Positions 1 to 25,480 are shown, counted from the first letter of the whole stretch. The stretch: 51,707 nucleotides of DNA, filler included, from Syncephalis fuscata S228 (GCA_025786725.1; 4 parts of 4 records of this genome joined end to end with filler, not necessarily neighbours in it); one strand, 5' to 3'. The notes: generated from the letters alone by a model not told the origin. Made by a program: numbers and translations.

Positions 1-786
1 TATACCTATGGCGGTAACACTACGCTCAGAGACGCACTTAGCAAGGCCAGTTGGGCAGACAAGGCCAAGTACTTGCCTGTCATTGCCAATCAAATGCTTC
101 AAGGTTTGGCATACATGCATCGTGTTGGTGTGGCGCATAACGACATCAAGCCAGACAGTAAGTTAAATTGGATATTAGTATTCAGTTTGTTAACAATCTG
201 CCATTAATTACTAGACGTGCTTGTACAAATCTCTGGCAACAACGTCATGACCACACTAATTGATTATGATTTGGGACTGGATATACGAGTTCCTGTTATT
301 CATCTTAATAAACCAGTTGTCATCAAGGGTATGACCATGGGATTCAGAGCTCCGGAAGCTCAGATTCCAAATGCCATGGTTGATGCCAGTAAAAGCGACT
401 CATGGAGCGTTGGAGCCTCCATTTACAACATGTTAACGGGCCTAACTCTTGGTTACGACTATGACAAACAACGTGCCGTCTGGGTCAGCTATATGTTGGC
501 TGCTGGTGCACCATCTGCCAATCAAGCCCGACCTGCTGCGCCAGCCAAAAATATGCCAGTCTTCCCGACCAGCCCAAATGGCCAGATCGAAAGGTCACTA
601 GTCACAGCACTATCCATTATGGATACACTGTTGACCAAGGATCCCAAAATGCGGCCAACTCCTCAAGCGCTACTTAACAATCAACTTACAGCCGGCAATA
701 TGGTGACATGGTCTTCTGGTGTACTTAACAAGCTTCGCGGTGTTAAGCAACCCATTAACAATCCGGTGCCTAAAAGAAGGCTATAA
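1..786 (+). CDS. Protein kinase-fold protein, 5'-truncated by window edge; inverted near-identical copy of the gene at 2330-3630
   Basis: Exon 1-157, GT-AG intron 158-214, exon 215-786. Splicing gives HNDIKPDNVLVQ (catalytic loop), LIDYDLG (DFG position), GFRAPE, SDSWSVG, DPKMRPTP. Confidence 0.85.
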
Positions 787-1029
787 AAGCATCTAAATAG
801 ACGCAATAATAAACGTTTAATAAGAAAGTTTAAAAAACAGCTTATTAGTATCTATTTTTCAATGGCTATTGTGACATACATATAATGGTGCATATATAAG
901 TTACGTTAATACATTTAAATAAGTAAGCCATGCTATATAAATATATATATTACAAACAAGTTATTAACTATTATTAAATATAAAAGTGCGTGCTAATTAC
1001 TCTACTAAAATTTTATTTTTATATTTATT

Positions 1030-1310
1030 TAAAGGGGAATTTTGAAAAATGCCTCGTTTTTAAAATTTTAAATGATTTATTAATTAAATTTTTTTTATTT
1101 GCACCACACTTTGTTTAATCTGCAATAAACATTATTGCAAGAAAAGACTATTTAATAGCACATTTTTTATAATATCTGCTTTATTAGTGGTTTCGATTTT
1201 TTCTTCAATAAAAACATTTGCTTTAATATTACTAGTGCTAATTTTTACATATCATATTTTTGTATTATGTTTTTTAAGTTGCATTTGCCACAAGTATATC
1301 GTTGGAAGCT
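1030..1310 (-). mobile_element. Degenerate Mutator-like (MULE) 3'-end remnant
   Basis: Aligns by eye to ~16560-16835. Minus strand reads QRYTCGKCNLKKHNTKI*, a broken version of the CX2CX4HX4C knuckle QRYTCRNCSSKGHNTRTC of the MULE copy. Confidence 0.6.
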
Positions 1311-1394
1311 TTTTAACAAATAAAACACGATTAAGGTTGCTGTTAATGTGGCTAAAATGAGCTAAATTACGTAAATAAGATTTATACAATTACG

Positions 1395-1785
1395 ACTTTT
1401 GTTATAAGTATACTGACTTGAGCTATTGTTAGAAGCTAAAATCATTTGATACTAATGATATTTTTTATTTTAAATCAGTACTAAACATCTGACTAAGCTA
1501 CTTCTATTTTTTTCATTTAGTTGCTTGATCGACGTTACATCATCGCATCATTGGTGATTGCAACAATGTAACTAAAATTAAAAAATAGCTTTTATTAACA
1601 AAAAGTTGTTACAGCACCAGAAATGTAACGATGTAAAGTTAGCCAGACACCCAAATAAGGGAAGAAAACATAAGAGGCAACTTAACCAGATATTTCAATA
1701 TTAATTCAATAAAATAACTGTTATCAATATCGAATAGCTTTAACTTTTAGATATAACTTGAGTCAGCAAATTTATAACAAAAATT
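1395..1785. repeat. Degenerate inverted repeat (arms ~1395-1565 and ~1605-1785)
   Basis: ttttgttataagtatactgacttgagcta... matches the reverse complement of ...ataacttgagtcagcaaatttataacaaaa; ttacatcatcgcatcattggtg matches the reverse complement of caccagaaatgtaacgatgtaa. Confidence 0.6.
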
Positions 1786-2329
1786 CTCAACTTTATAAAT
1801 TCTGACAATAAGCTGAAGAAAATTATATTAATAAAATTTTATATTTATTATTATTTGGGTGACAATATTAAATATTCGTACTACTATCAGGGCTCTAATA
1901 AGAGCTACATAGCATAAAATGCGCAGTGAGAGAAGTGTGTAAATACAATAAAAGCAAATAACAATAAAAGAATAGCTTTTTATTAATATTGTTGTCGGCA
2001 AACGATATAGTTATGTGTGATAGAATTAGTACACAACAATAAAAGTATAATGATAGTGTTGAAATTATAGTGTGTATAGTTTAGTGGATAGCCCCTTTTA
2101 AAATTTATAGCTGAAGCAGTTAGTAATAAGCACATATCATTCTTAAATAAAACGTAATTAATATACGATAAAATGCGATGAATACACAATGGGAAGAAAA
2201 TAAACAATAATGTAGATTTAAAAATATAAATACTATATATAAACATGAATAGGCTACTAATTGTTACAAAATAAAAAACATTGCTAAATTACTTTACTGA
2301 TTTTTATTACCGTATTTATTCAAATACTT

Positions 2330-3630
2330 CTACACCTTTCTTTTAGGCACCGGATTGTTAATGGGTTGCTTAACACCGCGAAGCTTGTTAAGCACACCAG
2401 AAGACCATGTCACCATATTGCCGGCCTTAGTCTGATTGTCAAGTAGCGCTTGAGGAGTTGGCCGCATTTTGGGATCCTTGGTCAACAGTGTATCCATAAT
2501 GGATAGTGCTGTGACTAGTGACCTTTCGATCTGGCCATTTGGGCTGGTCGGGAAGACTGGCATATTTTTGGCTGGCGCAGCAGGTCGGGCTTGATTGGCA
2601 GATGGTGCACCAGCAGCCAACATATAGCTGACCCAGACGGCACGTTGTTTGTCATAGTCGTAACCAAGAGTTAGGCCCGTTAACATGTTGTAAATGGAGG
2701 CTCCAACGCTCCATGAGTCGCTTTTACTGGCATCAACCATGGCATTTGGAATCTGAGCTTCCGGAGCTCTGAATCCCATGGTCATACCCTTGATGACAAC
2801 TGGTTTGTTAAGATGAATAACAGGAACTCGTATATTCAGTCCCAAATCATAATCAATTAGTGTGGTCATGACGTTGTTGCCAGAGATTTGTACAAGCACG
2901 TCTAGTAATTAATGGCAGATTGTTAACAAACTGAATACTAATATCCAATTTAACTTACTGTCTGGCTTGATGTCGTTATGCGCCACACCAACACGATGCA
3001 TGTATGCCAAACCTTGAAGCATTTGATTGGCAATGACAGGCAAGTACTTGGCCTTGTCTGCCCAACTGGCCTTGCTAAGTGCGTCTCTGAGCGTAGTGTT
3101 ACCGCCATAGGTATATATTGTACAGTAGCCACCATTGCTGGTGAATGCGTGCAATGGCTGAGCAATAAACTGGCTGCCAGCTGTTTTTGGAGCTTTAAGC
3201 GAGTCTTTGGCTTTCTTGAGCAGCTGGATTGGCAAACATGTTAATCGATGATTGCATAGCAATAAATACTGTACTTACATCAAATGCCTTTTTCTCGTTA
3301 TCCATTGATTGTGCATCTTTAGAGCACTTGAAAAAAGCAGGCTTACTTTGGAAGCTGGCATTGCCTACAACCAGTACATTGTTTGATTGCAACAGTTTGG
3401 TAATCACAAGTGTAGGCACTCCAAGTGTGTTTTGCGTATTTGCTTTTACATTTAGAAAGTTTGCGCCAATTGGAGCAGATGCTTTGGCTACACGTTAATA
3501 CAATAAATTTAATATAAATCATTTTTAACTTACGATCAAAGCCGACAGGAATGGCATCGGTAAGCGGTGTGAAAGATGCAAGGGCCAAGACGCAGCCGGC
3601 TGCAATAGTGAACATGTTGATTTTAACCAT
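2330..3630 (-). CDS. Signal-peptide-bearing (putatively secreted) Ser/Thr kinase-fold protein, catalytic residues intact
   Basis: Exons 3630-3534, 3487-3279, 3223-2959, 2901-2330 with GT-AG introns. N-terminus MVKINMFTIAAGCVLALASFTPLTDAIP; AFFKCS (VAIK Lys), DNEKKAF (alphaC Glu), HNDIKPDN, DYD, RAPE. No obvious Gly-rich loop. Confidence 0.85.
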
Positions 3631-5432
3631 TTTGATCGTAGTAGAGGTTGATGTTGTTGAATCGACCGGCGATTTGGATAACTGCGCAGCAGAGCAATGT
3701 AGTCGATGTAGAGTGTATTGGCGAGGTTGTAAAGGCGTTATGAGTTAACAAATTGAAATCTAACACGATTCAATCGTCCATTTTATAGCTGACTTGTAAA
3801 CGAAAGTACGTTGCACGGTATAGTTAGATATGTTGAAGACAACGCAGCAGCATGGGCGTCTCGACTATTACTGACGGGATTGTTTCAATGTGGACTTCAT
3901 AGATGTAAGACTGTCGTGCCTGTATCAACATAGTTAGTTGACCAAATAACTACCCCTGTTCAGAATACATGGGATTCCAAAATTACTTAATGCTTATAAG
4001 GTGTGAAGGTAATAGTGTCGTTTATTATTGGCCCGTGTTGGTATCATTCCTAACAAGGGGTACTACACATTTCTACAAGAATGCAGGAATTGTAGCTTAG
4101 GCTGTTTCATTACAACAGTCATATCAGCAATGACGTTCAAATATCGCAAGTTACAAGTCAAGACCCGCTGTTTCATCCATCAATAGGCCAGTCAATCCTA
4201 CGTTGTCGTGACACGTAACAAACACTATTTTATTGCATGAACAATATAATTTTTTTCCACTTCAAATTAAGCTTTTTTATTAACTAAATTTACGGATGAC
4301 ATGTTCATTTCATATAGTATTTTTCCATTTTCGAATTAAATTACTATAATGAAATATGGTTATACCAAATTTATCAAGAATGAATATACAATATTTAAAG
4401 TTGTACGAGAGTTGTCATCGGCCGCATGGGGGAGGGGAAATATATGGTTGGCAACTTTTTCGTTTGAGGATGTTCATTGCGACTTTTTGATTTGTACGTG
4501 AAAATACAGTGTATGTTTTGACACTTATTATATCACAATTCCATACCATGTTACAGGTTTTGTACTTGATTGAAATAAGTACTTTATGTTTTAGTCTGGC
4601 CATCGTTATGCTGCTTGCTATTTTAGCTATACACTTAGTAAAAATCAAATTGTTTAGAATTAATAAAAATAAATTTAGTATAGATATTTACTTGATGTTT
4701 TTAGTGCTTCTTTGTAAAACTAGACGGTTTTATTTTAATTGATACATCGAATTCACTATCACCAAAGGCAGTGATTTTTTTGAGCTGTGGCAAGAAAAAT
4801 TGAAGACTGACAATATGTACACTATTAATACATTTAATATGCTATTAATAACATGTTTTAATGATTGCAACTACTTTTAAATATTATATTATTATTTTAT
4901 CGTACACACTATTTACCAATACTATATTTTATGATTACACTTGTATTCTGTATTTGATAGCTTTTATTATTTACAAACCATGGTAGCATTATTATTATAC
5001 ATAATTATTTAAAAGCACATTCAATAACAACTATTAATTATAATAAAAATAATTTAGTGTAAATTTATTAACATGTCAAATTAAACAGCATGGCCCAACC
5101 ATTATGATACACCTATCAGTCAATTGTATTAGTAAATAATCAAATATAGATTACACATAGCAATAAATAAGATGGTACGCCGTCAGGGTTAAAAAGCTCG
5201 TTGATTGATCCACACGGTTTTTCAGGTGAAGAAATTCAATAAAAAACATCATTCGGCGCTAAAGAGAAAACAAACAAACAAAATTACAAAGTTGTACTTA
5301 CCAACTACAAAACCGACAAAGTATGTAAACACGTTTCTCAATACAAGCACACGTGTCTACATACTTGCCTAATTGTCATCAGCGATCGATAGGTGTTACG
5401 ATGCATGGATGATACTGTCAACTACTACCTTT

Positions 5433-5438
5433 AAAAAA
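5433..5438 (-). terminator. T6 tract directly after the MRP RNA, Pol III-type terminator
   Basis: aaaaaa on + strand (TTTTTT on minus) 3 nt past the P1 3' strand. Confidence 0.55.
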
Positions 5439-5441
5439 GGG

Positions 5442-5903
5442 ACCGGAAACACCGCGAGAGTAAGCCCCGTTGCGTTACGTTCGCCCTTCAGAGCGCTACT
5501 GCCAGAGGCAACCAATGCTTAGTAGGCACGAACGCCGCCGCATAACTGTGCTATGACGAATGGTCGTCCCCGTCCAGGATAGTACTCCGTTGTCACTTCG
5601 AACTCGGCCCATTAAAAGAGCCTCTTCGTTCGTTGGACAAACGGCACGTGCTATACGCCGTCTTCGTCGACAAGCAACGAGGAACGACCTACAACACGCG
5701 GGACGAGCATGACGAGTGAACAAAAGGTCGTTTACCGGCCGTTCAACACTTTCTGCCAACGTGTCCGGGGACTTTCCCCAAAGCATGTAAATTGAAAGGT
5801 CGTGCAGCCATCGAACGATAACCACACGCCAATCCGTATGTAGTGCTTTGATATTCTACAACAAGAGAGAGAGAAAAGGCGGCGCTTCGCAGGTGTTTCC
5901 GGT
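5442..5903 (-). ncRNA. RNase MRP RNA
   Basis: Minus strand has terminal P1 helix (ACCGGAAACACCUGCGA / UCGCGGUGUUUCCGGU), P2 (GCGCCGCC / GGCGGCGU), CR-I GGGGAAAGUCCCCGGAC, P8 GARAR loop GCA-GAAAG-UGU, CR-IV ACAGUUA and CR-V ACGCAACGGGGCUUACU that pairs with CR-I (P4). Confidence 0.9.
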
Positions 5904-6618
5904 AAAGAAACGTACAAGTGGGATGCGCGTCAATCGATCGCCTACTTATACTGCCATGTTGTAAAATAAAATATAGATAAAAAACTAAAAGCAAATATTA
6001 AAGAATAGCTAGACAGGGGGTGAGGCCATGTACAACTATAAACTTGTTTAGATGATAGAACAAGAAACTACCAAAAACGGTGATAAACATGTGTCGCATA
6101 TCTCTTGCTTTATCTTCAGCTATGCACGTATCATCACCACCATTACTGCTAATAATTATATGACTGGGAATTAACGAATAAATGATCACAGTGAAAACAA
6201 AGAAAGACAAAGGGAGACGATAGTTAATAATAACGTGATATGAATGTCTCATTTCATAGTCTATGGTTGTATACACACACACATGCATTTTTACTCCCTT
6301 TCTCTCTCACTCTTTGACGCTCGGTTTTCTCTTCACTCTGCCCAATTTATCGCCACCCTTACTCCCCCGCGCACTCACACAGCCAGCTGTCATTATCCTT
6401 TTTCTCGTCTTTCTTTTTGAACACTATTTACTGCTTGCAGTGGTCTAAAGCTAGGTGTTATTGGACGTGTGGTCATTATTTACACGCCATCTTGCTATTG
6501 ATTACTACGGCCACTATTCCTATTACTATTATTATTAGTACAGCTACTACTGCTCTATTGTTCGTTTTTTTACGCTTCTTGCTGATTAAGCAGTACATCT
6601 GATCGTATTATTCTCATC

Positions 6619-7204
6619 ATGTCACATCAAGGCCATCGTCGTGACCGTGCCACGGTGTCGGAATTGAAGCTTAAGAAGTTGTTGGAGAACAACCGTCGTT
6701 TGCAGCATCTATTGGATATGCCTCGTATTCCTGTCAGTGAAGCTAGTATTTCGTAAGTAGAGCCCGCCTTTTGTCTATTTAATCTAGCGTCTAGTTGTTA
6801 TCTTTTAAAGAAAGTCACCTATAACATTTCTATTTGTTTGAATTATTATCATTATTATTATTATTATCTACATCTTTAATATTATATTAATAGTATTAGC
6901 TATTTTTATTAATTTCATTGTTCTTATTTGTAATATTTAAAAGTCATTTTTAGCTTATTATTACGATAATTATACTATAATACTTTATTTATTATTTTCC
7001 ATTTTATGACCATAACAACCATCATTACTATTATCAAATTAAATAACCTGTCATTTACTAATTCTATTTTATCATTTTAGGTTAATTAATTACGTCAAAA
7101 CAACAAAGGATTATTTGATTCCATCAATATGGGGCACTGTTAATCGAAAGGATGATCCGTATGCACCACAAGGCTCTAGCTGTGGTACTTGTACCATTGT
7201 TTAA
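6619..7204 (+). CDS. Heterotrimeric G-protein gamma subunit (Ste18/GpgA-like)
   Basis: Exons 6619-6752 and 7081-7204, intron GTAAGT...TTTTAG. Protein MSHQGHRRDRATVSELKLKKLLENNRRLQHLLDMPRIPVSEASISLINYVKTTKDYLIPSIWGTVNRKDDPYAPQGSSCGTCTIV, GGL-like with CaaX box. Not in the ORF track. Confidence 0.9.
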
Positions 7205-7279
7205 TGTTATTACTACTATGACTATGACTGTTACTGTTATTGCAACTATTATACTATCACTATTATTTAATAGCTGTAG

Positions 7280-8021
7280 CTATAGTAATAGTAATAGTAT
7301 TTCGAACATAATCCATGATACGTATTACGAATAGAGTAAAGAGATTATATTATGGCTATAGTATATCTATTTATTTTCTCTCTTTTCTATCTCATTCTAT
7401 TCACGCCACAACATATCGGTTATTTTTTATACTGCCGGTTGTATCCGACTATTTGTGCGTAGTTTTTCTTTTATTTGTTGTTATCGGCGTGTGTATTTGT
7501 TGTTTGTGACAACGATTGACACTGGCCACAAACAACCATTGTGCCGGTCTTTTCTCGTCTATATCACAATATCTCAGCTGTATCTCATCACTCTCGTCCT
7601 AATAACTGCACCCACCATTATAGTAATAATAATAATAATAAATTTTCACCGCAATCTCCCAGACATATTCCCCATTCTTCCGTACCAATCGTTTATTAGT
7701 GCATGGACCTTTTACGGCGGAGTTCTCTCGGCTTTTGTTCTACCAAGTCGTTCTATAGTTTATCCTGATCTCGTGATCATGTGAATAGATCAATAATGAG
7801 AACTACGTTGTCGTGACGCGCATTTTCAACCTCCATTTGTTTTCCCCACACATATGCTAACAACAACTAAAAAAAATCAGTGTCAATGAATGATCATTTA
7901 ATACTCAGTTTATTTTCTCAAGTGCATTTCAATAGTCAGTCTCAAATGGCAAAATACTACAAATAGAGCACTGGTTGGCGAGTGATCCGCCTATTTGACA
8001 TACAACACCTGTATTCCAGCT
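7280..8021 (+). repeat. Direct repeat copy 1 (upstream of ACS)
   Basis: Colinear with ~11110-11738; ends in ctggttggcgagtgatccgcctatttgacatacaacac, identical in both copies. Confidence 0.8.
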
Positions 8022-8496
8022 CTTCCTCTCTATCTCTCACTCTCTATCTTTTTAAGCCTGTGTTCCACCACATTATTACCTGTTTGCACTGCACGTCACA
8101 TTGCAGTTCTCAATTGAATTGTCCACAAGTGACGACTATTCTTCTTTATCATCTTCACCATCGTCTATCTTTCACTTCGTGTCCGTGTGATTGATTGACG
8201 TGAAGTGGATCCACGCTGGAAACACAACGTGTTCTTGTTCATTCCTATTGTGTTACTGCCATCATCGGCAAAACATCCTTGGCATTAGTTACTTATCGAT
8301 ATTAACGATAACGGCAAAACAACAGTCTTTGCAGTAAAGACGTGACGCACTGTCCTGTTCATTTAAATCCCTTCCGTTTATTCGTTTGGCCTTTTCTTTG
8401 CTTAATTCGCCTTCTTCTCTTCCTCCTCCTTAGCTTGCAAGTCTTTTGCTATATTGATTCATACTTACTTGTTCATTTTTATCATTGATTTCTATT

Positions 8497-10533
8497 ATGT
8501 CTACTACTGTTGACAAAGTTACCGATGCTACAGCTTCTCATCCTGAGTTGCTAGAGCCGACCATTGATGGTGTCAATGCCATTGCCGTACCCAAAGCACT
8601 ACAAGATGGTAGCGATGGTTGGCCCAAGGCCCATATCAGCTCATTTAAACAATATCGTGAAATGTGGGAGGAAAGTCTACGCAACCCAGAAGACTTTTGG
8701 TCAAAGCTAGCTAAAGAAACACTTCATTGGTACCATCCATTCGAAGTTGCTACTAGCGGTGGCTTTGAACATGGCGATGTCGCGTGGTTCCGTGGCGGCA
8801 AGCTTAACGTATCCTACAACTGTGTGGATCGCCATGCGAATGTCGACCCAAATCGGGTAGCCATGATTTACGAGCCGGATGAACCAAACCAATCGCGTAA
8901 CATCACTTATGGCTGGCTATTCCGTGAAATGAATCGTGTGGCTAATTTGCTACTTAGCTATGGCTTGCGCAAAGGTGACGCCGTGGCCATTTACATGCCT
9001 ATGGTGCCCGAAACGGTTGTAGCTATGCTTGCCTGTGCCCGTATTGGCTGTCCACACACCGTTGTATTTGCCGGCTTTAGCTTTGAAGCACTTCGTGATC
9101 GTATTAATAACGCTAAATGCCGTGTTGTTTTCACCGTTGACGAGGGCCGTCGTGGTGGTCGTCCCATTGCCACTAAGCATATAGTTGACCAGGCATTAGC
9201 CCATGGCTGTCCATCAGTTGAAAAGGTCGTTGTATTCCAACGCGGGCCTGAACCAGCCGACATTGTTATGACAGAAGGCCGTGATGAATGGTGGCATACT
9301 GCTGTTGACCGCCATCGTGCGTACTGCCCACCTGAATGGATGGATGCTGAGGATCCACTATTCTTGTTATACACATCTGGTTCAACGGGTACGCCAAAGG
9401 GTGTTGTTCACACGACAGCTGGTTATTTGTTAGGCGCAGCCGTTACAACCAAATACGTATTTGATTATCATCCTGGTGATATTCTCGGGTGCACGGCTGA
9501 TGTCGGATGGATTACCGGCCATGACTATATCGTTTATGGGCCGATGTGTCTAGGCGGTACTTCAATTCTATTTGAATCGGTGCCGACTTATCCCGATGCC
9601 AGCCGATTCTGGAATTTAATTGCTGACCATAAAATTACACACTTTTACACAGCACCCACGGCTATTCGCGCTTTGCGTCGTCTCGGTGACCAATGGCTTG
9701 AAGGCAAGGACCTATCATCATTGCGAGTCATCGGCTCTGTCGGTGAACCAATTAATCCTGAAGCATGGCACTGGTACAACGAGAAGGTTGGCAAGAATCG
9801 CTGTGCTGTTATTGATACTTATTGGCAAACGGAGACGGGTGCTATTGTACTGACACCATTACCTGGCGCCATCGCTGCTAAACCAGGCAGTGCATCTGTG
9901 CCTTTCTTTGGCATAGATCTGGCTATTCTCGATCCAGCCACCGGTCAAGAGCTTACGGGTAACGATGTTGAAGGCGTGCTAGCTATTAAGCGCCCTTGGC
10001 CATCGATTATGCGCACTGTGTACAATACACATGAACGCTATCTTAATGGATACATGCGTGTCTATCCTGGCTATTACTTCACTGGCGATGGCTGTTACCG
10101 CGATGCCGATGGCTACTACTGGATTCGTGGTCGTGTTGATGACGTTATCAACGTAAGCGGCCATCGATTGAGTACGACAGAAATCGAATCGGCTTTGATT
10201 CAACATCCAGCAGTTGCCGAAACAGCCGTTGTTGGCCAAAACGACGACTTAACCGGTCAGGCCATTTGCGCTTTTGTCACGATTAAGCCAACACATAGCG
10301 ATGTTATACCTAAAGAACTTGTATTACAAGTACGCAAAACAATTGGACCATTTGCTGCACCTAAACATCTTCACTTGGTAGCTGAATTACCTAAAACACG
10401 CTCAGGCAAAATTGTCCGCCGTATACTGCGTAAGATTGTTAACGGTGAAGCTGATAGTCTTGGTGATTTAAGTACCGTCGGCGATCCAAGTATCGTTGAT
10501 GATATCATCAAACTAGTCGCTGAAAAGCAGTAG
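8497..10533 (+). CDS. ACS: Acetyl-CoA synthetase (AMP-forming), intronless
   Basis: Long ORF with [45 protein letters not shown] motifs; first ATG at 8497. Confidence 0.96.
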
Positions 10534-11908: not shown

Positions 11909-14085
11909 TATATATACAAGGCGTAGTTTAAAATAGATATGTTTACAGGTGTTTTATTTAAAATTCAATAAGCATTTTTGTTTATATACTAAATCTAATG
12001 CTTATAAGTTTAGCTGTCAATTATAATATCATGTTCTATAATAATGGCATTTGTTTATGCATTATGTTATTATTCTTATTTCACTGATGACATTGTTCTA
12101 TAAATATACTTGTCTTTATTGTTGTTGTTTGTCATTATTATTACACTCATTGTTCTACTGTTGACATTGTTCTATAATTATATTTGCTTTATGCTATTAC
12201 TTTTTATTCTTTATTCTATTCCACCACTTGAACAACTCCCTCATCTGTATTTCAATTTGTTCATAGTCTTTTTATATACAATGCCACTCGATTCATGGAT
12301 TGTATATATTAAATAATTTATTAATTAAATAAATATAATTTTACATTAAACAATTTATTAGTTATTTATTGTGATTTGGAATCAAATGACTATTTTCAAC
12401 AACATTTGCGTAATTGAACTACACATTTAATCTATTGAACATGAAAACAAGTGGCGAGTGACATCAATCACCAAATACTCATCATTGTAGATTCATTATC
12501 CAGTATGCATATATCCAGTACACATATATACTCCATTCACCTATATCATTACCATTCTATTCCACATTACTATATACCATTATATAATATACTAGACATA
12601 TTTTATTGTTTATATGCTTCATTACACTCTACTCATTCCACTCATTGCATTATATGCACTATAAATTCAATAACGTTTTATATAATTTTTTACCGTACAT
12701 TTATCATTTTATATACCATTATATAATCGCCTATCCTCCTCTATCCAAACCTATTTTTGTTTTTGTTCTAGCTGTATTATTAATAAATGTCGACTAATTC
12801 CGCTTATTGATCATGCATATATGCTCAATAACTTTAACATAACTAATCGTCATTTCACGCCATAGATTCTTTACAATTTATATTATTTTATTGTTTAGTA
12901 TATACGCGCTAGTTATTGCAGTTTTCCTTTTTGTTTTAGCTTTATTATTAAGTTCGACTAATGTCGGTCATCTGCTCATGCATATATGCTTAATAACTTG
13001 AACATTGCTAATCTCGCTTAATATTGCGTATTCATTATAATGTTTATCATCTTATTATATATTGGCTACACGCTGTCTATATTCGTTGTCGATATGGTTC
13101 AAATTTTTATTAATAAAATTGACATATTGCATTTTGTTCACTGAGTTATATTGATAGAACAAACAATATAAATATGAACAGAGTTATGTTTTATTAAGAT
13201 TATTTATAAATAAACTAGGTCGTGTCAGTTAGTTATGGTTTAATGTTAAGCAAAACAAAGTGACAGGTATACATAGTAATAATACATACTGCGATAATAT
13301 ATGCATATTGGATAATGAACCTATGATGATGAGTATTTGATGATTGCTGTTATTTATCACTCATCATCATGTTTAATAGGTTAGATATTGTTAAAAATAT
13401 TCATTGTCCCCAAATCATACTAAATGGCTAATAAATTCAATTAAATTATATAATAATGTTAAATGACACACAATATTCTATATAATGATACAGTTTATTA
13501 GTTCAATTAACAAATATTAAAATTAAAAGTAAAAATAAAATGGTACATAGCATATATANNNNNNNNNNNNNNNNNNNNNNNNNNNNNNNNNNNNNNNNNN
13601 NNTTAATTAATTAANNNNNNNNNNNNNNNNNNNNNNNNNNNNNNNNNNNNNNNNNNNNCTTTAATATATTTATATTGCCATTATAATATAATTGTTCAAA
13701 TGCCATTTATTAGTCAGATTGACTATAGGAAAGTGGCTGTTTAATAAACAACACTTATACTAATATATTAATATTGATATTACAGCACAATATGCCCAAA
13801 TGCAATAGTAGAATAATAGAAATAAAAAAATCATTTAGATGCAACAACAATACAATAACATGGAATCAATTATATGATTTCTATTAATATTCAATCAATT
13901 TTCTACACATGGCCAACAGCAACAATGATTGACCTTAAACGTTTCAAAGAATCAATGGTATGTTAAATTATTAATTAAATCAATTATTATAGTATTTAAT
14001 ACAAGACCATATATTATGTTGTGCATAACAACAGCATAAATTTAGTTGGAACAAATTTTGCTTTGGGGACTCAAAATAGGATAAT
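11909..14085 (+). mobile_element. AT-rich non-coding repeat, arm A (spans an N-linker); contains MITE-like unit ~12370-13430
   Basis: Reverse-complement homology to ~26330-28086 from tatatacaaggcgtagttta to ggaacaaattttgctttggggac; internal inverted repeats ~12370-12520 vs ~13290-13430. Confidence 0.7.
13559..13658. other. Assembly linker (N44-TTAATTAATTAA-N44)
   Basis: N run with a six-frame stop insert. Confidence 0.99.
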
Positions 14086-14129
14086 CAAAAACGCAATTCG
14101 CTCAAGCACTGTATTGTTGCATTTCTAAT

Positions 14130-14700: not shown

Positions 14701-14862
14701 TTTTAATAGCTATGATTGTAGCAAAAATATCTTGTTACGGTTTATAATACCTTGAAATACTGATAAGGCACTAATTAACAAATTTAAATGTGCAGCTATT
14801 GTATCAATGCTACAGCAGAATGAAACAGTATTAAAGCGGTTATTTAAGTATAGTTAGGTGGT

Positions 14863-15783
14863 CAAACACAATAGAATGCAAATTAAAAAGTAATAGCCAT
14901 TTAATAACAAAGAAGTGGCAATACTATGTATAACTTTACACACGATTGATTGAATTGCATAATATTTTGCACAGATGTACGTATAGCATATAGGTAACTA
15001 CTGGTAAAGTATACCGTTATTGTATTGCGTAATGGTATAATAATTATGATAACATGTTAATAAATATGCAAAATAACAGTTTTATGCCATTCATAACTTG
15101 TATAAGTAAAATACAGCAAAATTATTAGCAGATTCGAGTTCTCCGTGCTTAGTTATACATATTGACATAAGATTTAGAACAGTGATTTTTGCAAAAAATG
15201 TCAACCAAAAATGCAATTTACATAAATATTTGTTAACAAAAATTTAAGCTATATGTATATCTATGACATAGATTGTCACTGTATATTAGTATATCTGGAT
15301 ATTAACTTGCTATTGTGCTTGTTTTTCGTTATAAAGTGTTTTGGACTTTCGTTATGCCAAATTTCATCTTTAATATTAAATTTTAAGCATAAAACTTTAA
15401 TTGCTTTTGTTAACAAATATTTATGTAAATTGCATTTTTGGTTGACATTTTTTGCAAAAATCACTGTTCTAAATCTTATGGCAATATGTATAACTAAGCA
15501 CGGAGAACTCGAATCTGCTAATAATTTTGCTGTATTTTACTTATACAAGTTATGAATGGCATAAAACTGTTATTTTGCATATTTATTAACATGTTATCAT
15601 AATTATTATACCATTACGCAATACAATAACGGTATACTTTACCAGTAGTTACCTATATGCTATACGTACATCTGTGCAAAATATCATACAATTTAATCAA
15701 TCGTGTGTAAAGTTATACATAGTATTGCCACTTCTTTGTTATTAAATGGCTATTACTTTTTAATTTGCATTCTATTGTGTTTG
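14863..15783. mobile_element. Foldback/MITE-like element: ~379-bp near-perfect inverted arms with a 163-bp loop
   Basis: Arm 14863-15241 is the reverse complement of 15405-15783 with only a few mismatches. Confidence 0.85.
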
Positions 15784-15809
15784 CCATAATTTTACAATTA
15801 TGATTAAAA

Positions 15810-16380
15810 AATTTACAACTTAGATGGCCAAGCAACACATGATTTCGGCGCTACCCTATAGTACTAGCCTTTGATGTGTGCTAACATTTATTATAATGTT
15901 TAAAATACAATGTGCTGATTGATTAGTATTACTTTGCCAATAAACTTATTTTTTATTGGCCATCAACCAGCACAGTTTAACTATAATAAATTTAATAACG
16001 CATCACAAGAAGTAAAAACAAGATGAACTGGAAACGACTGATTTCCTTATTAGTATTGAATAAAACCATTATTTTATAATAAATTTATTTAATATTAGTA
16101 TTTAAATGCTTTTTACTATATATCATTAATGCAGAACATCAGCTTATATAGCCGCTTATATGTTTACAACCAACAAGTAGCTACTCATTGTATCTTTTTA
16201 ATAGACATTTGTTACTATTAATCAGTGCTAATATCCAATATGTATATTATCATTTTGATCAATCACATGCGACTTTAACTAGTTATTCAATCATACGGTA
16301 TATTTCATAGTCGCATTTTCATAAAATTCCGTTCATAATATCGAAATAGTAGAGATACATTATGTTGTAACATTTCAGTT
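15810..16380 (+). repeat. Degenerate direct repeat, right of foldback hairpin
   Basis: Colinear with ~14130-14700. Confidence 0.7.
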
Positions 16381-16559
16381 TATGAATAAAAAAGCAATAA
16401 ACAATTTTTTAAATAGTATTTTGATACTGTATATTTGAAACAAATAACTGAAATATAGTTTAATATCTAACTGAATATCCAATGTATAGTAACTGTGCTT
16501 TTAAAAATATAACTTTTAATTTAAGGAAATTAAAAAATACACTGTTTTTTAATTTCACT

Positions 16560-17530
16560 ATAATAAATTTTTCTTTTTTAAAATTGATTAAAACTATTTA
16601 TTAATAAAATCATTTTTTGTTTGCTCCACACTTTGTTTTCTTGTAATGACGTTTACCACAAATTAAACATTTTTTAATAACACGCTCTCTTTTCTTTATA
16701 GCTGTTTCATTAGTAGTTTGTATTTGCTTTTCAATAAAGATGTTTGTTTCAATGTTATTCATGCTAGTGTTTACAGCGCATGTTCTTGTATTGTGTCCTT
16801 TTGAGCTACAGTTGCGACAAGTATATCGTTGGTGGTCTGCAAAGCTTTACTATAACATCTAATTCTTTTAACTCTTGGTCTACCGGCTTTCTTCGTTATT
16901 TTCGGTGGCAAACACAAAATATCTGCAGTAATTGACTCTATTTCAACCAGGCAAATTTCTGGAGCATATAATTTGTTTAAATAATCAATGGTGTAAGATT
17001 TATTAATAAACTCATTTAATAAAAAACCACAATTCTTCAAAATTAGTAGTTTTAATTTGAAATTTGGTATCAGAATAATCATCAACTATATAGTTATTGA
17101 TGTCAGTTAATGTTGATTTATACAAAAAATAGCTATTATTAGTTAACAATCCTTGAGCTTGTCAATACTTAATTCAGGTACTGAATCTGCTAAACGTTTA
17201 AGGAAATAGACCTAGTTGTTTTCATTTTTATGAAATACTATAGCAACAATCAAAGGTAAAATATCGTTATTTCCATCTTTAACAACTGCAGTAAGAGCAA
17301 CACCGCCATAAGAAGATCTTAAATGGCAACCATCAATTACCAGTACTTTACGGGTATACTGGCAAGCTTTAATAGATGATGAAGGACATAAAAATGCATT
17401 TTCAAAATTACCAGACTGGTTCTGCAAAAAGTACTGAACAGAGCCAGGATTAAAATGCTTGAATTTGATAAGGTAATATTTAATAAATAAAAAAGAATTG
17501 ATATTGCTGTTAATATCATTCTTTTCCATT
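16560..17530 (-). pseudogene. Fragmented Mutator-like (MULE) transposase
   Basis: VLVIDGCHLRSSYGGVALTAVVKDGNNDILPL (MULE DDE domain start), LPPKITKKAGRPRVKRIR, and zinc knuckle CRNCSSKGHNTRTC in a shifted frame; stops and deletions between them. Confidence 0.85.
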
Positions 17531-18194
17531 AAATTAAGGGCAGATTAAGCTTTGTAATAAAAAATATCAACTTCTGTTGAGCTATTACAATTGTTATTGT
17601 ATATTAAATAATCAAATATGTACTTAATACTTTCACTTGTGCATTTTTTAATTTCATATTTGCTAATGTAGCAACATCATTTGTAATAGATTAGTAATGG
17701 ATTTAATATTATTATTATTAGATTTATATGAACAACATTCAAATGTTTAATATTGTACTAGGTAATCTTTACTAGGCCAGTTTTTTGCTTTTTGGCAGTC
17801 AAAACAAATTGTCATTTGTTGCTGGAACGGTCTTCATGAGGACAAATAAGCTGTAATCTTGTTGAATCACTATTTTTACTCTTAAAATTGCAACTGTTAA
17901 CAAGTTTAAACTCGTCAACAGAATTTTATGGTCAAGTGCCATATGATTGATAATATTGTCGTTATTGTTAGCCATTACCATTAAACACTATGACTATTCA
18001 TTATCTAACTAACAAGTACTCTTATAAATACTAAACATTACCTTATTCAATAAAAAACAATAATCTCTCAATAACTTCTCTAACTTTAACATCAAATGTT
18101 TTACCAATTGAATCTGTCTTTAAATACACTTTTATTTGTATTTGCCAAACAACTCAGCAACAGCGTTGAAAGCTAAACTCGTTTGATACCTTTA

Positions 18195-20686
18195 TTAAGA
18201 AGAGCTAGACATAACTCGTCCGATATCCCTAAATGCAATATCCCAATTTTGACGTACAATCTCTATGCTATCATTATCATTCTCGTCGTAATGTATCGTA
18301 CCTTCATATCCTTTGTGATCAATAGCCACGACCACTGGGACCACTTTGTCATGGTTGCTTCCAAAGTAGCCTAGCTGTTTACTGGAGCTGGGACATAGAT
18401 TAATTACATACACCGCAGCACAGTCGTGAATCTGGGCGTATTCTTCGGCACGATGGCAGTGCTCATCAAATACCGCTTCGGTCGCACCAACCATCAATTC
18501 GAGGCCGTATTTAGGCCTGTCGCTGCCATTATGTACGAGAATGTCTAGTCTTCTATTGCCTTGGCTGTAATTCTTGACTTCCAGCAAGGCTCTGTAGCCT
18601 AATCCTGAGTACGCTCTCGGGAGCAGACTGTTAAAGATAATGCCAAACTCGGCTTGAAACGCGTACTCTGACGGAAATCCGCCAGCGTTCAAGGATTGCC
18701 TAGCCCAAAGACGCTGAATAGACAGGTTCTGTATAAATAAGCATTGACCAAACAAATGTCAATATCAATCCATTGCCAATGAGCTTTATACTATATATAC
18801 AACACTCACCTTAATTATATGTTTCAACAACCACCGAGGGTCAAGTTCATCCACGTTCGGTGGCCCTTCAGATAGCTCGATTTCCCGCATACTCATCGTT
18901 TCCAGCATCAAACTGCGAAGAATAGGCGCACTGCACTTGGCTGTAGCTGTAAGCCCATCTTCGGCTAGGTCTACAAGAACAATCATTCCCTCCGAGACAA
19001 GGTACTTTGTAGCAAAATCATACGTCTATGGAATTAATCAATTAGTAGGTAAATAAGAACGACGAATTGACAATTGAAACATGAAAGTCAAGATCGTCAA
19101 CTTACCTCGACCTCAGCGGTCTTATTATAAAGGACTTTAATGAGAATAGATTTGGCCCTTTCTGTGAGGTGCTTAAGAGCCCGAATTATGGAGTTATAAT
19201 GTTGCGTCTTCCGCGCAGAGGCTGCCAATTGAAGGCTATTACCCCTCCAATCGTCAACAGTAAGGATGGGATTTTCTATTTTCCTTTTTTCAATAAAACA
19301 GCCACAAACGCCGACGAGACCTTTGTGGCCAGATGTAAGGGTGTAGAGGTCTTCTCCGATACCAGCTGCGTCAAATCCAGGCACATGTTTGGCATACTGG
19401 AACATGAGATCTTGAACCTCTTCTTTGGTAAACTGGTCGGCCCCAAAAGTCTGTCCTCCCTCCTCTGAAAACGGTGAAATATTGCTTGATAGACCAGAAT
19501 TAGGGCGGGCGAGAAGAAGCTCTCTGATTTTGGAAGTGCCAACAAACGCAAGAGAAAATAGATTAAAGCTGATGCGGTTGCCTTTAAGGGCTCGTAGGGC
19601 GGTGATGAATTCGTTCGTATTTTCTTTGATCTTGTTGTCTTCGTCGCCCAGACTAGTCAGGTACGAAGCTTCATCAATGATGAGAATCATCTTCTTCGGA
19701 TGGAGCCTTTTTGAAAAGAAAAGCTTGAACGTTGTTGAATTCACATTGGCTTTAGAATCAAGGTTGAACCGAATTTTGTCGGCGGCACAAAAGACCATGC
19801 ATATGGACTCCCAAAACGCTTGACTTGTTTGGTTGATCTTAATGGTACAATCAAAGGTTACGAGGCATACCTCGAAATTTTCCATGGGACTACCAGTAAT
19901 CTCCAGAAACTTATTCGGATGCTCATTGAACCACCGCGACAGTGCGTAGCAAAAGGTGGATTTGCCACTTTGACGGTGACCATCGAAAAGAAGGAACTTG
20001 CGCTCGAGGAGGTTCTCTCCAAATTCCTGGACTTGTCTGGGCTCAATATAGAAGTTACTATCCGGGAATACTTCATTAGCGTGACCAAAATGACGCGGCC
20101 CTGTAAAAAACCAGCGAGTGGTTGGTTAGACAAATTCACATCCAGTACAGACCACGCTACTAACAACAACAGCCAAAATAACTTACTGTTTGTAGTAGTA
20201 CAAGTGTACACTACTTCATATTCTTGTTTCAGGCGAGATACTGATCCCTCGTCAGAGAAATCACCCTTTCGTTTGAGTAAAAGACTGCCTGTAGGAAAAA
20301 TGGGATAAAGTGTGAGAAGACCTGATAACATTTATAACTAGTAACCTGGCAATATCGCGCCTGCACTACTTACTGGGAGGTGGTGGTACTACAACGATCA
20401 GCGGGTTGTCGTCGCTATTGCCATCGACAAGCTCGCTGAGTTTCTTGCTCAGCTTGATGGTCTTTCCCGAATCGCCGGCGTCGGCCTCATTCTTGTAGAC
20501 TTTTAGATCAGATGAGGCTACGCCATCGAGCTTGCCTTGGAAAGCAACATCGGTGATAAGGGTTCGGCAAAGGTCATCAATATCAGCGTCTTGTCTAAGG
20601 TCGCGGATCTTGCTGGGGTTGCCCGTCTCCTTGAGAGCGCCACCGTCCGAGGGCTGACGCAGAAGCTTGACCCAGACGGCCGACAT
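18195..20686 (-). CDS. Crinkler (CRN)-type effector: ubiquitin-like header + P-loop NTPase + PD-(D/E)XK-like REase domain
   Basis: Exons 20686-20374, 20288-20187, 20100-19106, 19025-18810, 18728-18195 splice in frame. Header DIDDL...DLKVYKN...PLIVVVPPPP; Walker A GHRQSGKST; Walker B MILIIDE; C-terminal SEYAFQAEF...RRLDILV...YGLELMV...RAEEYA. Confidence 0.85.
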
Positions 20687-21816
20687 CGATTCAGGTGCTG
20701 CTGAAACTGGCTGATCTTGATCTGCAATAGAAAGAAAGGAACAAGGTTACAGGCAACGGTGAGGTCAGGTAGTGCTAGAGTAAGAACGAAGACGTCGAGA
20801 AAGAAAAAGCGAGTAAGAGATATAAAGGGCGACAAGAGCCACGTAGACTCATGCGCCAGCCTGACAGCAATGACAAGCAGAGGCGTGAGACACGAGACGG
20901 TTCATAGTTCTTTTTTTGACGTCTTGCAGATGTCAAAATAGGCGCAGAGCAGATAGAAGGTGCATGGGACGGAGAGAAGAAGTGTCTATTGCTGTTGGGA
21001 TGAGTTTACCTTGAACGATACGAGACGCTTCTTCAAGAAGTCTTTTAAGCACTTTGGAAGACATTGTGCAGAATTAATAGGAAAATGCCAACGGTACCAA
21101 ATATACTAGCGGAATTAAAGAGACTAACAGGAGCGAGGATGAGGTGAGGTGACAGAAGCTGACAGCGTGTGAAGGTGAATGAGACGAGAAACAAAAAGAG
21201 GAAAGAGCCGCGCGTGACGAAACGCGACTTGGCAAAGAAAAAAGTTTATGGCAGATCTCTATCAATACTGTTACTGGTTGGTTTATCACAATGTGCAGTC
21301 ACTATATTTAGGATTGCGTCATTTTACTAATAGGTAGCGATTATGTTATTAAGCTATTAGATTTTGAAAAGTAGAGAATGGTAATTTACTGGACGTCATC
21401 TGCCTTTTAGTCTCAATTGCCACATGTCCTTCCTACAGTGATTGCTATCTCATTTTGACCTGCCCACTCGTCCAGTCAATGAACAAACAGGTTCAACGTC
21501 TTTGAGCATGGCTGGAAGTACACCGAGCGGTGTGCTAGAACTACACCAGCCAAGCTTTCCACTAGCTCGCCGTGGCGCATGCTTGCCTATATCCAAAGTT
21601 ATATCCTCTGCTCCAATGTCGGCGGTTGTGTAGGCGATGCATTGGCGAGCTGGCAGAAGCAAAGAAACAAGACATGATCTTGTCAACTGGACCACCCAAC
21701 GCTCATTTTGTTCGGCTTTGTTGCAGCACGCCCCATATTGTATCAATAATGTAACTTGGAAAAAAGTTATGGCTTTATTTCTTTAATCTTTTTCATAGCA
21801 AGCTATTAAATCCAAT

Positions 21817-22068
21817 CTAACAAGCAGGCCTAGAACAGCATCCAGGATATGGCGCATCGGGATCTCCAGGAATTCTACCACATCCAGGCGAAGGGACAAA
21901 ACCAGGACAGCCAACACCGCTATTAGCATTAATCATACGAATACATGTCTTTGTTTTCGTCGATTTAGCAACAGCCCGACGAAGTAGACGAGAATCGGCA
22001 TCCGCTATAGTTGCACTGGTTACAAGCACCACGACAAGAGCACAGAAAACGGTGATATAAATTTTCAT
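21817..22068 (-). CDS. Small secreted cysteine-rich peptide, SVWC-like C-terminus
   Basis: 83 aa; hydrophobic signal peptide, dibasic LLRR site, six Cys in mature part, ends GCPGFVPSPGCGRIPGDPDAPYPGCCSRPAC. Confidence 0.75.
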   Translation of the reverse strand: MKIYITVFCALVVVLVTSATIADADSRLLRRAVAKSTKTKTCIRMINANSGVGCPGFVPSPGCGRIPGDPDAPYPGCCSRPAC

Positions 22069-22693
22069 GGTAATGGCTGCCTAATAAAATAAATAGACAA
22101 TCAAACAAATGTAAATATGTATACGCCAAAGAATATATAATAGATAATAAGGTGATAGAAAACATAAAAAATTAGACAAATGTAAAGATATATATAATAA
22201 AATACAGTTAATAGAAAAATAGAATGTCGATGCAAGGAGTAATATTTACTGCTCATTCTCCTTTACATGCATGCGTAATTGGCGATCATTTACACACTTA
22301 TTCAATTGTTTTCTTACAGTAATAAATTTCATATATTACGACGTTATTTACGAAATATCCAATGGAATGATTATCATAATACTTTTTAAATAATAATAAT
22401 GAAAATCTAGTGTAATATGCTAACTAATAAACTGTATTACAATAAGTACTTTATTTTTGGTTTATTGAATAATGTGCACCGTAACCTTTTATGGATGAAA
22501 TGCGTGGTTATCAGATGTTAATGAGCGTGCTTGTTTCAAATATCAACAGAATCAGCACTATTTTAGTCATTCATACTTGTATCTATGCGAATTCGCGTGC
22601 TATTCTGAAACTAGTCGTAATTTAAACAAAATAAATACGGAATGATATCTGATGGTATACCACATTATTAGGTTTCTTGTTTGTCGCTTCAAT

Positions 22694-24059
22694 ATGAAAA
22701 AATTTATTGTTACTTATTGGCTATTCACTGATTTGTTCTGGCCAGCAATGCCTGTATTGGCAATGGATGATGAACCTGTGCAGAGACCATCCATAATAGC
22801 ACCATGGTCGATTACAAAACAAGAGAATCAGCCACCTCCATTTCCCGCAGATGGAATAAGCCCCTCACAGCAATCGTCTATTTTGTTAGGTCGTGGTCCA
22901 CAATTGCCAGACTATGCACCTAACGGATTGGCTCTTAAAGACTCAGGAGATTACGATGCGTATGGGCAGCGTGGCTTAATGGTTACCGAATGCTTACACC
23001 ACGATGAGCAAACATCAACTGCCATGGTTTTTTTCCGTAATACTCGAGGATTACTAAAATGCACCAAAAATATTGAAGCAATTAATAAAGAATTAAGCAT
23101 ATTAAAAGTAGGCTATTACAACTATCGTTAAGGTTGATTAATATAATATTATGTAGAAAATTGAACAAGGTCCACAAAGCTCAGATACATTTTTGATGGC
23201 TGGCATTAATCGAGTTGCTCGTTTTTTGCACATATTTCCGCAAAACAAGTTGCGTTGTTTAATTACATCTCAATCGAGTAAAGTTACATTTGGCCAATAT
23301 ACTGCAAAGCTTACTTATGAAGAAAAACTTCGTTTTATGCCTCTGCTTTTCAAACAGTTGATCCAAGGTAAACATCAAAAATGTGCACCATCTATTTACT
23401 AATGCCAAATTACTAGCGGCTTCGTTTTTACATTATGTTGGTATAGCACATAGTAATATTAATTCGAATAGTAAGTTATTGTAGTAGCTACATTTATTGT
23501 TTTACTTATTATATTTAAACTATTACCAGATATTTGTATGTTTTTAGATGATTATGAAAAACCAGAGTTGATGCTAGTCAACTATTCCGCCGTTTCTTTT
23601 CTTTCTAAATCTAAAGGTGCTGAAGATGTACAGCATCAAGTACCGCGCGGTTCTACTTTTGGATATGACTCGCCGGAATCCATTGTCTATCCAGCGGTTA
23701 ATCTTCTGAAACGCGATGCTTGGGCTATCGGAATGACCCTCTATACCGGCTTCACAGGGATCCCTTTTTATGGATTTACTTTAGAAAAACAAAAGGTGGT
23801 TGCGCTGTCTAGAAACGACTATAGCAAGGTTTTGATAGATGCCTACTATTTTGGTCGTGGCCAAGAAGAGCCGATTAAATTGGACGTGGATTCACAACTG
23901 AGTTTTCGCTCATTTGGGCCACAAGCCATCAGACTACTTATCTCCGATCCAGTCTATCGCCCAACTCCTCTCGCCATGCTAGATATGTTGACGCGTTCAG
24001 CTAATCAGGCTTCGTCAAAAACAGATACTTATTTAGCTGAAACAGCATTTAAATCTTAG
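22694..24059 (+). CDS. Putatively secreted pseudokinase, paralog of the kinases at 1-3630
   Basis: ATG 22694; introns at 23108-23156, ~23368-23416, ~23471-23529. Signal-like MKKFIVTYWLFTDLFWPAMPVLA; LLKCTK, HSNINSNN (catalytic Asp lost), LVNYS (DFG Asp lost), GYDSPE, RDAWAIG, DPVYRPTP. Confidence 0.8.
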
Positions 24060-24541
24060 ATATTTACGAAAACAAGTGCTGCACATAAGGGGTTTAATTA
24101 ATAAACTGATAATAAATGGATTAAGCTGATGGGTTGTTACATTGGCAATAATTATTGCATATAAATAGAACTGCCATGTATCAGTTTCAAATCAACGTGA
24201 TACTTTTTAGTACAATTATGATAATTCTGAATGCTTTAGCCAAACTTGCCCACTACGACCTAATGAGACCATGCTATATTGGAAATATTGATTTGAACTA
24301 GCGCAACTATTTTGGTTGCCGGAGTATTAATAGGTATCAGGCACCAATTTAGGTAAACATGGGACATGCCAGAGGTGCAAGCTAGAAATGGCTGGTGGCC
24401 ACATGGCATATCTTTGCTATAAAACATGCCAGGGACTCTAGGCAACTCAATAGTCCTGCATTGCTTCTCCAACCTCCAGCGCCTTTCTTTTAGAATAACT
24501 TGGCTTCTTCATCTTCTCAAAACTATAAATACGCCAGCATA

Positions 24542-25480
24542 ATGACTTTTGATCGTAAATCTATTTTCATGACTTTTGCCAGCATGGTGCTTTTGGCATC
24601 AAACGCTATAGGCTCAAATATACCCTTGGACCATTACAAATCAAGTATGATAGCTGATGTCATTACATATTTTATACTTGCGCTAATTGATAATCTCAAA
24701 TCAAATAGAATTTACAGAAACACCGGTGCTTCCTCGCTATAACAAGAACGACAACACCTATTCTTTATGTGCATTGTCCAACAAGCTTCCAAAAAGCTTT
24801 GATGTGATAGAGGTATGCTTGAATGACATTAGCTATTCTTATATTTATACCGCTTAAATACAGAGTCTCTACACAGGCCGTGCTCCTCAGGATGCCAATA
24901 TTGCTATTGGTAAAATGTATTTTAGCATTCCTATTAGAAAGACTCAAGGTAACGGACAAACCTGCTACATTATGCAATACGAGGACACCACTCCATTAGA
25001 GTACTTTTTCTTAGGCAATCGTCCTAATTATAATCATGATCAGGTGTTAGACATAATTAAGCAAATCGTAACAGGTAGGTAATGATAGCCCAAAAAGACA
25101 CTGATTTTAACATATTATCAATTAGCTGTGAAGTACATGAAGGCAAAAGGCTGGATATACAACGAAAATATAACTCATGGTAAGCGACTGACTAGTCTTT
25201 TATTTAATTATTAACTTGTTTACTAGGCGGTGGCGTCAGTAAGAATGGAATCGTAAAGTTTACCAACTTTGATCGTACTTATTCCTGGGATCTGGCAGGA
25301 ATTCCAGCAGATCAAATGCGGCTAAAAGTAAACAATATCAATACAGCTTTTTATCAAGCAATTGCCCAATGCTACATGAAGGCAATGGGCATGACTAATG
25401 CTCAAGAGGCATTACGCGATGTTGAGAACGCTTATGCAGAAGTCAGAGTAGATTTTAAGCTACCAGAACATAGCCCATAA
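24542..25480 (+). CDS. Putatively secreted, highly divergent and shortened pseudokinase-like protein
   Basis: Five exons splice in frame: MTFDRKSIFMTFASMVLLASNAIG...CYIMQYEDTTPLEYF...VLDIIKQIVTAVKYMKAKGWIYNENITHGGGVSKNGIVKFTNFDR...EHSP*. AlphaE and beta8 patterns of kinases, no HxD or DFG. Confidence 0.65.

Follow-up and report, generated by a model that had tools for sequence, protein, structure and literature searches.

Kinase and pseudokinase genes of Syncephalis fuscata belong to a large, divergent family of mycoparasitic Zoopagales whose members are predicted to be secreted

Does a fungus that parasitises other fungi carry protein kinases that are made to leave the cell? The question is raised by a stretch of 51,707 nucleotides (nt), hereafter the window, from Syncephalis fuscata S228 (GCA_025786725.1). 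In its positions 1 to 25,480, an earlier note recognised four genes with a kinase fold, here called K1 to K4, and proposed that they represent an effector kinome directed at host cells. Syncephalis and Thamnocephalis taxa are obligate mycoparasites, according to the available portion of PMC6784888. The four genes are the following.

1-786, plus strand: K1, 3' part of an active-type kinase, 5' end lost at the window start (exons ..157, 215-786)
2330-3630, minus strand: K2, active-type kinase, 380 amino acids (exons 3630-3534, 3487-3279, 3223-2959, 2901-2330)
22694-24059, plus strand: K3, pseudokinase, 402 amino acids (exons 22694-23107, 23157-23367, 23417-23470, 23530-24059)
24542-25480, plus strand: K4, degenerate member with a truncated C-lobe, 241 amino acids (exons 24542-24644, 24709-24812, 24864-25074, 25126-25179, 25227-25480)

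All four genes splice through GT-AG introns of 46-64 nt to stop-free frames, which confirms both the genes and the motifs given in the note. The common intron positions that it had reported are also real and aligned: a phase-0 intron after alphaC (between AFD and LL, ILK and KI, and VIE and SL), one of phase 1 following the catalytic loop, and another of phase 1 in alphaE of K3 and K4, in which the catalytic-loop exon is 54 nt long. A further phase-1 intron, directly after the signal-peptide-like exon, is common to K2 and K4.

K1 to K4 belong to a large and divergent family of single-domain kinases and pseudokinases of mycoparasitic Zoopagales, with far more members than the four genes of the window. 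An exhaustive HMMER search with a five-sequence profile over 1.84 billion cluster representatives (50%-identity clustering) listed 150 proteins: three already seen, 107 new family-like proteins of at most 500 amino acids and 40 longer ones. As short matches of the family type run to the end of that list (rank 150), the number of further single-domain relatives at this level of clustering is at least 107. Word-index searches, which reach the closest relatives only, had suggested a small family, and the full search overturned this view. The ten relatives that were named, chosen across the tree, all come from S. fuscata (four), S. plumigaleata (three) or Thamnocephalis sphaerospora (three), and the protein P0003 is from S. 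pseudoplumigaleata.

Two phylogenies set these proteins apart from other kinases. A FastTree phylogeny was built from 79 kinase domains of the family and 45 of other kinases. In it, 78 of the family rows fall to the same side of a branch supported at 95%, and only the long-branched P0109 falls outside; in a quick IQ-TREE analysis, the five seed sequences group at 98% against 62 other rows. The possibility raised in the earlier note that the proteins might scatter inside ordinary kinase families can thus be set aside. Terminal branches are long (median of about one change per site), and conservation spans two genera at about 25% identity. A metagenome scan returned 80 loci encoding distant kinases (24-49% identity over short stretches), none of which groups with the family and which served as background kinases, and the ESM Atlas matches were generic kinase clusters only. 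The kinship of K4 is weak in pairwise comparison (E-values of 0.02-0.04). Its scores are 45.3 bits (E 2.7e-16) against an 81-sequence family profile and 9.2 bits against the five-sequence profile, and none of 2000 shuffles came as high in either case.

The active-type genes K1 and K2 represent a single, recent inverted duplication and do not count as two independent genes. They are tail to tail and 97% identical across 813 nt, intron included, on either side of a spacer.

787-2329, no strand: AT-rich spacer between the tail-to-tail copies K1 and K2

The deposited counterpart of K1, P0001 (375 amino acids), differs at 1 of 242 residues and has the same signal-peptide-like start as K2. That of K2, P0005, differs at 3 of 340 residues; its first intron ends 6 nt further on than in our model, which gives a protein of 378 amino acids. 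The splicing of K1 and K2 rests on gene models and on their agreement with these deposited predictions. K2 has the beta3 lysine (Lys86), the alphaC glutamate (Glu97), the catalytic aspartate in HNDIKPDN, the magnesium-binding aspartate in DYD and the APE motif. It departs from the canonical pattern by an asparagine in place of the HRD arginine, by DYD in place of DFG and by the loss of the Gly-loop motif. A signal peptide is predicted at about residues 1-26, and cysteines are found at positions 87 and 136. To judge by the retained residues, K1/K2 is likely an active kinase.

K3 retains the beta3 lysine and the glutamate and has lost both catalytic aspartates (motifs HSNINSNN, NYS and SPE); it also has a linker rich in proline and glutamine, and the cysteines Cys123 and Cys172. 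Of 204 residues compared with S. fuscata KAI9594852.1, 202 agree. Both aspartates are also missing from P0007, the S. plumigaleata ortholog of K3 (53.5% identity across 310 aligned residues), and this shared dead state argues for a pseudokinase under maintenance. K4 (motifs YNENITH and NFD; Cys55 and Cys103) has a strong signal-peptide-like start and stops shortly past the DFG equivalent, without most of the C-lobe. If a pseudokinase is defined by the loss of the catalytic and magnesium-binding aspartates in an intact and expressed gene, K3 is one; the frame of K4 is open in the window. The earlier note had seen in the four genes a gradient from intact to dead. Its motifs are as quoted, but the genes are actually one active gene present twice and two unrelated pseudokinase lineages.

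Transcripts provide additional information on these two genes. Two contigs of the run X1 exactly skip introns 2 and 3 of K3 and introns 1-3 of K4 (five joints), intron 1 of K3 lying outside their coverage. The run was treated as RNA-type because its contigs skip GT-AG introns, and these exact joints show that K3 and K4 are both transcribed in a closely related strain; a look-up gave no RNA record for the two genes. Intron 4 of K4 (25180-25226) is kept in the X1 contig, where a candidate branch-site adenine (25214) is altered, and with this intron retained the reading frame would stop at 168 residues. This is possibly a natural splicing-loss allele of another strain or copy. Furthermore, all four coding differences that are listed for K4 when the X1 contig is compared with the window alter a residue. 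As this is a single contig and four of four is within neutral expectation, K4 may be in decay, polymorphic or rapidly evolving.

Over the whole family, the lysine and both aspartates are kept in 63 of 88 scorable relatives, the other 25 being pseudokinases, and the alphaC glutamate is kept in 80 of the 88. The HRD arginine and the DFG glycine are each found in only 2 of 88 members. The Gly-loop pattern GxGxx[GAS] occurs in 8 of 76 relatives and in none of six seed proteins, versus 31 of 58 background kinases. When the active and dead states are placed on the FastTree phylogeny, they require 17 changes, at least eight of which are forced by well-supported branches; pseudokinases therefore arose repeatedly. 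A subclade near K2 (P0094, P0133, P0137, P0156, P0080, P0085 and P0122) has lost APE and the catalytic-loop lysine while the beta3 lysine is kept and both aspartates mostly are, which may be another way in which activity was altered.

All six family proteins that were scanned score above the cut-off of Pfam Pkinase (E 3.6e-23 for P0005). A single-sequence fold of P0005 reached a mean predicted local distance difference test (pLDDT) of 30, and the usable model came from an 11-sequence alignment (pLDDT 66, predicted template modelling score 0.69). In this model, the N-lobe has the ordinary five strands, and the beta1-beta2 hairpin is retained with a tight, glycine-free turn. The best structural match is Sky1p (Z 22.2, root-mean-square deviation 3.6, 274 aligned residues), and many other kinases score only a few Z units away. 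Near-equal matches were MSK1, MELK, CDPK, DAPK and p38 in searches of solved structures, and MPS1, CaMKII and CMGC kinases with Foldseek and VIA. As modelled, the family proteins have a eukaryotic protein kinase (ePK) fold.

Two features suggest that these proteins enter the secretory pathway. In K2 (2.35), K4 (2.36) and K3 (1.63), no 11-mer further downstream is as hydrophobic as the N-terminal one. Among the 76 full-length relatives (at least 60 residues ahead of the beta3 lysine), 65 have a hydrophobic N-terminal 10-mer of at least 2.0 (71 at a threshold of 1.6), versus 4 of the 40 long non-family proteins. Signal-peptide-like starts are thus the rule, and the absence that the earlier note had named as fatal to its proposal is not observed. 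Annotations truncated at the 5' end may account for part of the 11 misses; P0007 seems to be an annotation of this kind. A later transmembrane-like stretch was found in 1 of the 76, and a KDEL- or HDEL-type end in none of them.

The other feature is a pair of cysteines, one directly after the beta3 lysine (Lys+1) and one in beta5, present in all 90 relatives that span both columns, a count that leaves out 17 shorter or gapped ones. These are the sole fully conserved columns among 81 aligned proteins, ahead of the catalytic lysine (89%) and aspartate (78%); past residue 28, the number of cysteines is exactly two in 29 of the 81 proteins. Both cysteines together occur in 0 of 58 other kinases (many of them near-copies) and in 0 of the 39 that could be scored among 45 long search hits. 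K3 carries the pair; in K4, for which MAFFT placed beta3 differently, the spacing is 48 residues versus 49-50 elsewhere. In the model, the two cysteines lie in strands E79-86 and E132-138, and the beta5 cysteine aligns with the residue three ahead of the MELK gatekeeper. In the N-lobe of kinases, beta3 and beta5 run side by side, and the residue three before the gatekeeper presumably faces the Lys+1 residue across these strands, from which a disulfide is predicted. This invariant pair with its predicted disulfide would be an independent pointer to the secretory pathway, and taken with the N-termini it leads us to predict that the K1-K4 family is secreted.

The positions 1 to 25,480 under which the earlier note placed the four genes do not represent one demonstrated cluster. 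Of the four assembly pieces that make up the window, the first holds K1 and K2 and the second K3 and K4, and an artificial linker separates them, so that linkage of the four genes is not established.

13559-13658: 100-nt assembly linker between the K1/K2 and K3/K4 pieces (44 N + TTAATTAATTAA + 44 N)
31969-32068 and 41635-41734: two further linkers, identical to the one at 13559-13658 (44 N, TTAATTAATTAA, 44 N)

In the reference, K3 finds its best match on a 504-kb contig. Four active-type copies are recorded on one S. fuscata contig of 782 kb, together with a second copy of K3, so that the two K3 copies are on different contigs.

What, then, would such proteins do? We regard it as probable, on the sequence evidence, that the family consists of secreted effectors acting on the fungal host, whose cells they would rewire in a manner similar to that of the secreted kinases of Toxoplasma. 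A cleavable signal peptide would carry the protein through the endoplasmic reticulum (ER), where the beta3 (Lys+1) and beta5 cysteines would pair in a cross-strand disulfide and so brace an N-lobe that has no Gly-loop. With neither membrane anchor nor ER-retention signal, release would be expected at a haustorium or penetrating hypha; non-endoparasitic Zoopagales enter their hosts via haustoria, according to excerpts of PMC6899921. About 70% of the members keep the lysine, the alphaC glutamate and both aspartates and would still need ATP after leaving the ER, which makes the host cytoplasm or the host-parasite interface the most plausible site. Being non-RD, these members would likely be active without activation-loop phosphorylation, with proteins of the host as their substrates. 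K3 and other pseudokinases were likely retained as binders, adaptors or decoys, and members of the K4 type likely stand at the turnover end of a family that evolves by birth and death. Host targets are favoured by the heavy expansion within one lineage, together with long branches, fresh duplicates and copies in decay, all of this in obligate mycoparasites. A bolder version, to which we give no more credence than to its denial, is that Syncephalis and Thamnocephalis independently evolved a secreted kinome on the scale of the ROPK family, with dozens of kinases and pseudokinases per genome, braced by a disulfide and devoid of the Gly-loop, delivered into living host hyphae to phosphorylate or sequester defence and signalling proteins. 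From the earlier proposal, the expanded, lineage-specific and signal-peptide-bearing kinase/pseudokinase family in a parasitic fungus is supported.

Several points weigh against host-directed effectors. Signal peptides were judged by a hydropathy heuristic only, and the note's statement that all three complete genes start with one holds strongly for K2 and K4 and weakly for K3, which has an aspartate within the hydrophobic stretch. RxLR, PEXEL and LFLAK-like motifs are not enriched after the signal peptide. The predicted disulfide would be reduced in the host cytosol and would fit a lumenal or interface site equally well; ROPK proteins have a disulfide as well. With the Gly-loop and the DFG glycine lost, many seemingly intact members could be weak or dead. 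Lastly, ten of the 107 relatives were named, so that restriction to mycoparasites is a result of the sample.

The main rival is that these are kinases of the secretory pathway or interface that phosphorylate secreted or wall proteins of the parasite itself, in the manner of animal Fam20C or, in the vacuole lumen, Toxoplasma WNG1, with the pseudokinases as activators. We consider it unlikely, though deserving serious attention: a signal peptide and a predicted disulfide suit an oxidising compartment, and no translocation motif was found after the signal peptide. The available text of PMC6442604 describes the WNG kinases (WNG1/BPK1) as secreted and Gly-loop-less, with active and pseudokinase members, and WNG1 as an active enzyme that phosphorylates parasite proteins. 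They differ from the present family, in which the beta1-beta2 hairpin is kept and for which no specific sequence or structure link to WNG appears among the matches listed. Moreover, more than 100 deeply diverged clusters from few genomes, with long branches, tandem duplication and decay, fit an arms race with the host better than a housekeeping role in the lumen, and transmembrane anchors or retention signals are missing.

Host-directed action could also take the form of teamwork as in ROP18/ROP5, a K3-like pseudokinase holding a host defence protein for an active partner such as K2. Active and dead members do coexist, the dead state of K3 is kept between species and pseudokinases arose repeatedly; but K1/K2 and K3/K4 are unlinked in the window, the best match of K3 is on a different contig from the K2 copies, and so many members indicate no particular pairing, which makes this arrangement improbable as it stands. 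Finally, duplicated and decaying kinase genes could have expanded largely neutrally, with little function. The 97% inverted duplicate K1/K2, the truncation of K4, its four residue-altering changes and its kept intron 4 would agree with this, and for K4 alone it may be the right explanation. For the family it is very improbable, given that two genera, at such low identity, have kept the cysteine pair, most of the catalytic residues and the signal-peptide-like start, that K3 is conserved at full length in S. plumigaleata, and that K3 and K4 are transcribed and spliced.

Secreted effectors acting on the host, the reading that we prefer, have well-known counterparts among parasite kinases. In the rhoptry kinases of coccidia (ROPK, with ROP18 and ROP5), active and dead members are scattered over the tree, and a C-lobe disulfide joins the alphaF "WC" to alphaG-alphaH (PMC3682881, in the portion available). 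As far as this portion goes, the likeness comprises ePK-fold proteins with signal peptides that have expanded within one lineage of parasites, a scattered mix of kinases and pseudokinases, a family-specific disulfide and an insert after alphaC. However, the cysteine pair described here is in the N-lobe (beta3/beta5) and that of ROPK in the C-lobe, and the host here is a fungus. Conserved cysteine columns are found only in beta3 and beta5, and mature K2, P0013, P0003 and P0007 have no cysteine in the C-lobe. PF14531 (Kinase-like), which we take to represent the ROP kinases, scores at best 22.2 bits against a cut-off of 25, always below Pkinase. The missing C-lobe disulfide and this score place the family outside ROPK by descent, and no ROP2, ROP5 or ROP18 structure is among the matches listed in the structural searches.

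The kinases FIKK of Plasmodium, CRN8 of oomycetes and LegK of bacteria likewise come from parasites and work in or on the cells of their hosts. They differ from the present family, in which PEXEL or LFLAK-like motifs are not enriched; the LegK1 profile gives 19-35 bits against a cut-off of 550, and no NCBIfam model reaches its cut-off. FunK1 proteins have DxD in place of DFG and are cytosolic and longer. They resemble this family by a lineage-specific fungal expansion and by DxD for DFG, but FunK1 (PF17667) was rejected: it scores 15.4 bits for P0003 and 13.5 for P0007 against a cut-off of 24.1, with P0001, P0005, P0013 and P0014 unmatched among the matches listed. The Pfam family of Fam20C has no match at E<=1 in the family proteins scanned, and the structural matches listed are typical ePKs.

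The earlier note knew of no functional description of such a system in fungi, and none was found, with the caveat of two microsporidian species whose predicted host-exposed proteins include expanded kinase families (PMC5423893, available portion). These species are also parasites of the fungal kingdom with kinase expansions enriched for targeting signals; they belong to another lineage, and their families rest on prediction. By analogy, they are the nearest fungal precedent. For the present secreted kinase/pseudokinase family, no description was found in the literature, where mention in an earlier Zoopagales genome paper is possible, and no earlier description was found there of the predicted N-lobe disulfide. 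In the available portions of the sources, "kinase" occurs twice in PMC6784888, both times for metabolic enzymes, the kinases of bioRxiv 2023.12.22.573025 are histidine kinases, and the main text of a 2026 paper on mycoparasite effectors (PMC13188720) has no occurrence of the word. The mycoparasitism literature, to the extent that it was available, points to proteases, chitinases and carbohydrate-active enzymes. A convergent secreted kinase/pseudokinase family with this distinctive invariant cysteine pair is thus apparently undescribed.

The genes neighbouring the kinases look ordinary.

6620-7204: likely G-protein gamma subunit with a CaaX box at its end (read by eye)
8458-10533: acetyl-CoA synthetase
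19097-20125: AAA ATPase
25827-26108: CutA-like gene (by eye)
30838-32020: TLC-domain gene

A fifth kinase gene near 5600-6170, hinted at by weak tblastn matches, was rejected once profiles were used. Repeats are frequent in the window. A foldback element at 14863-15783 (arms of 396 nt, 97% complementary, spaced by 132 nt) is possibly a miniature inverted-repeat transposable element or a source of hairpin RNA. A dispersed non-coding repeat family with 65-87% identity and internal inverted copies (11909-13558, 26351-28086, 43780-44333 and 45954-47034), one copy of which lies about 900 nt downstream of K4, probably corresponds to degenerate transposon remnants. At 33166-35136, a 2-kb tandem array nearly free of G and C consists of about 80 copies of a 25-nt unit with a higher-order period of 124 nt. 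It is flanked by two open reading frames on the minus strand, one with an Mcp5_PH domain (32021-33127) and a repetitive one of 1143 amino acids (35138-38569), and may lie inside a single Num1/Mcp5-like gene.

To our knowledge, almost nothing is known of how biotrophic mycoparasites control their hosts. If they are host-directed, the proteins described here would be the first effector-kinase family of a filamentous fungus and of fungus-on-fungus parasitism. A convergent secreted kinome would then offer a concrete handle on host control, all the more so as the genes are small and could be expressed in yeast, and its substrates would reveal the proteins that Mucorales hosts use for defence or signalling. 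The family would also constitute a natural experiment on kinase catalysis without Gly-loop, HRD arginine or DFG glycine.

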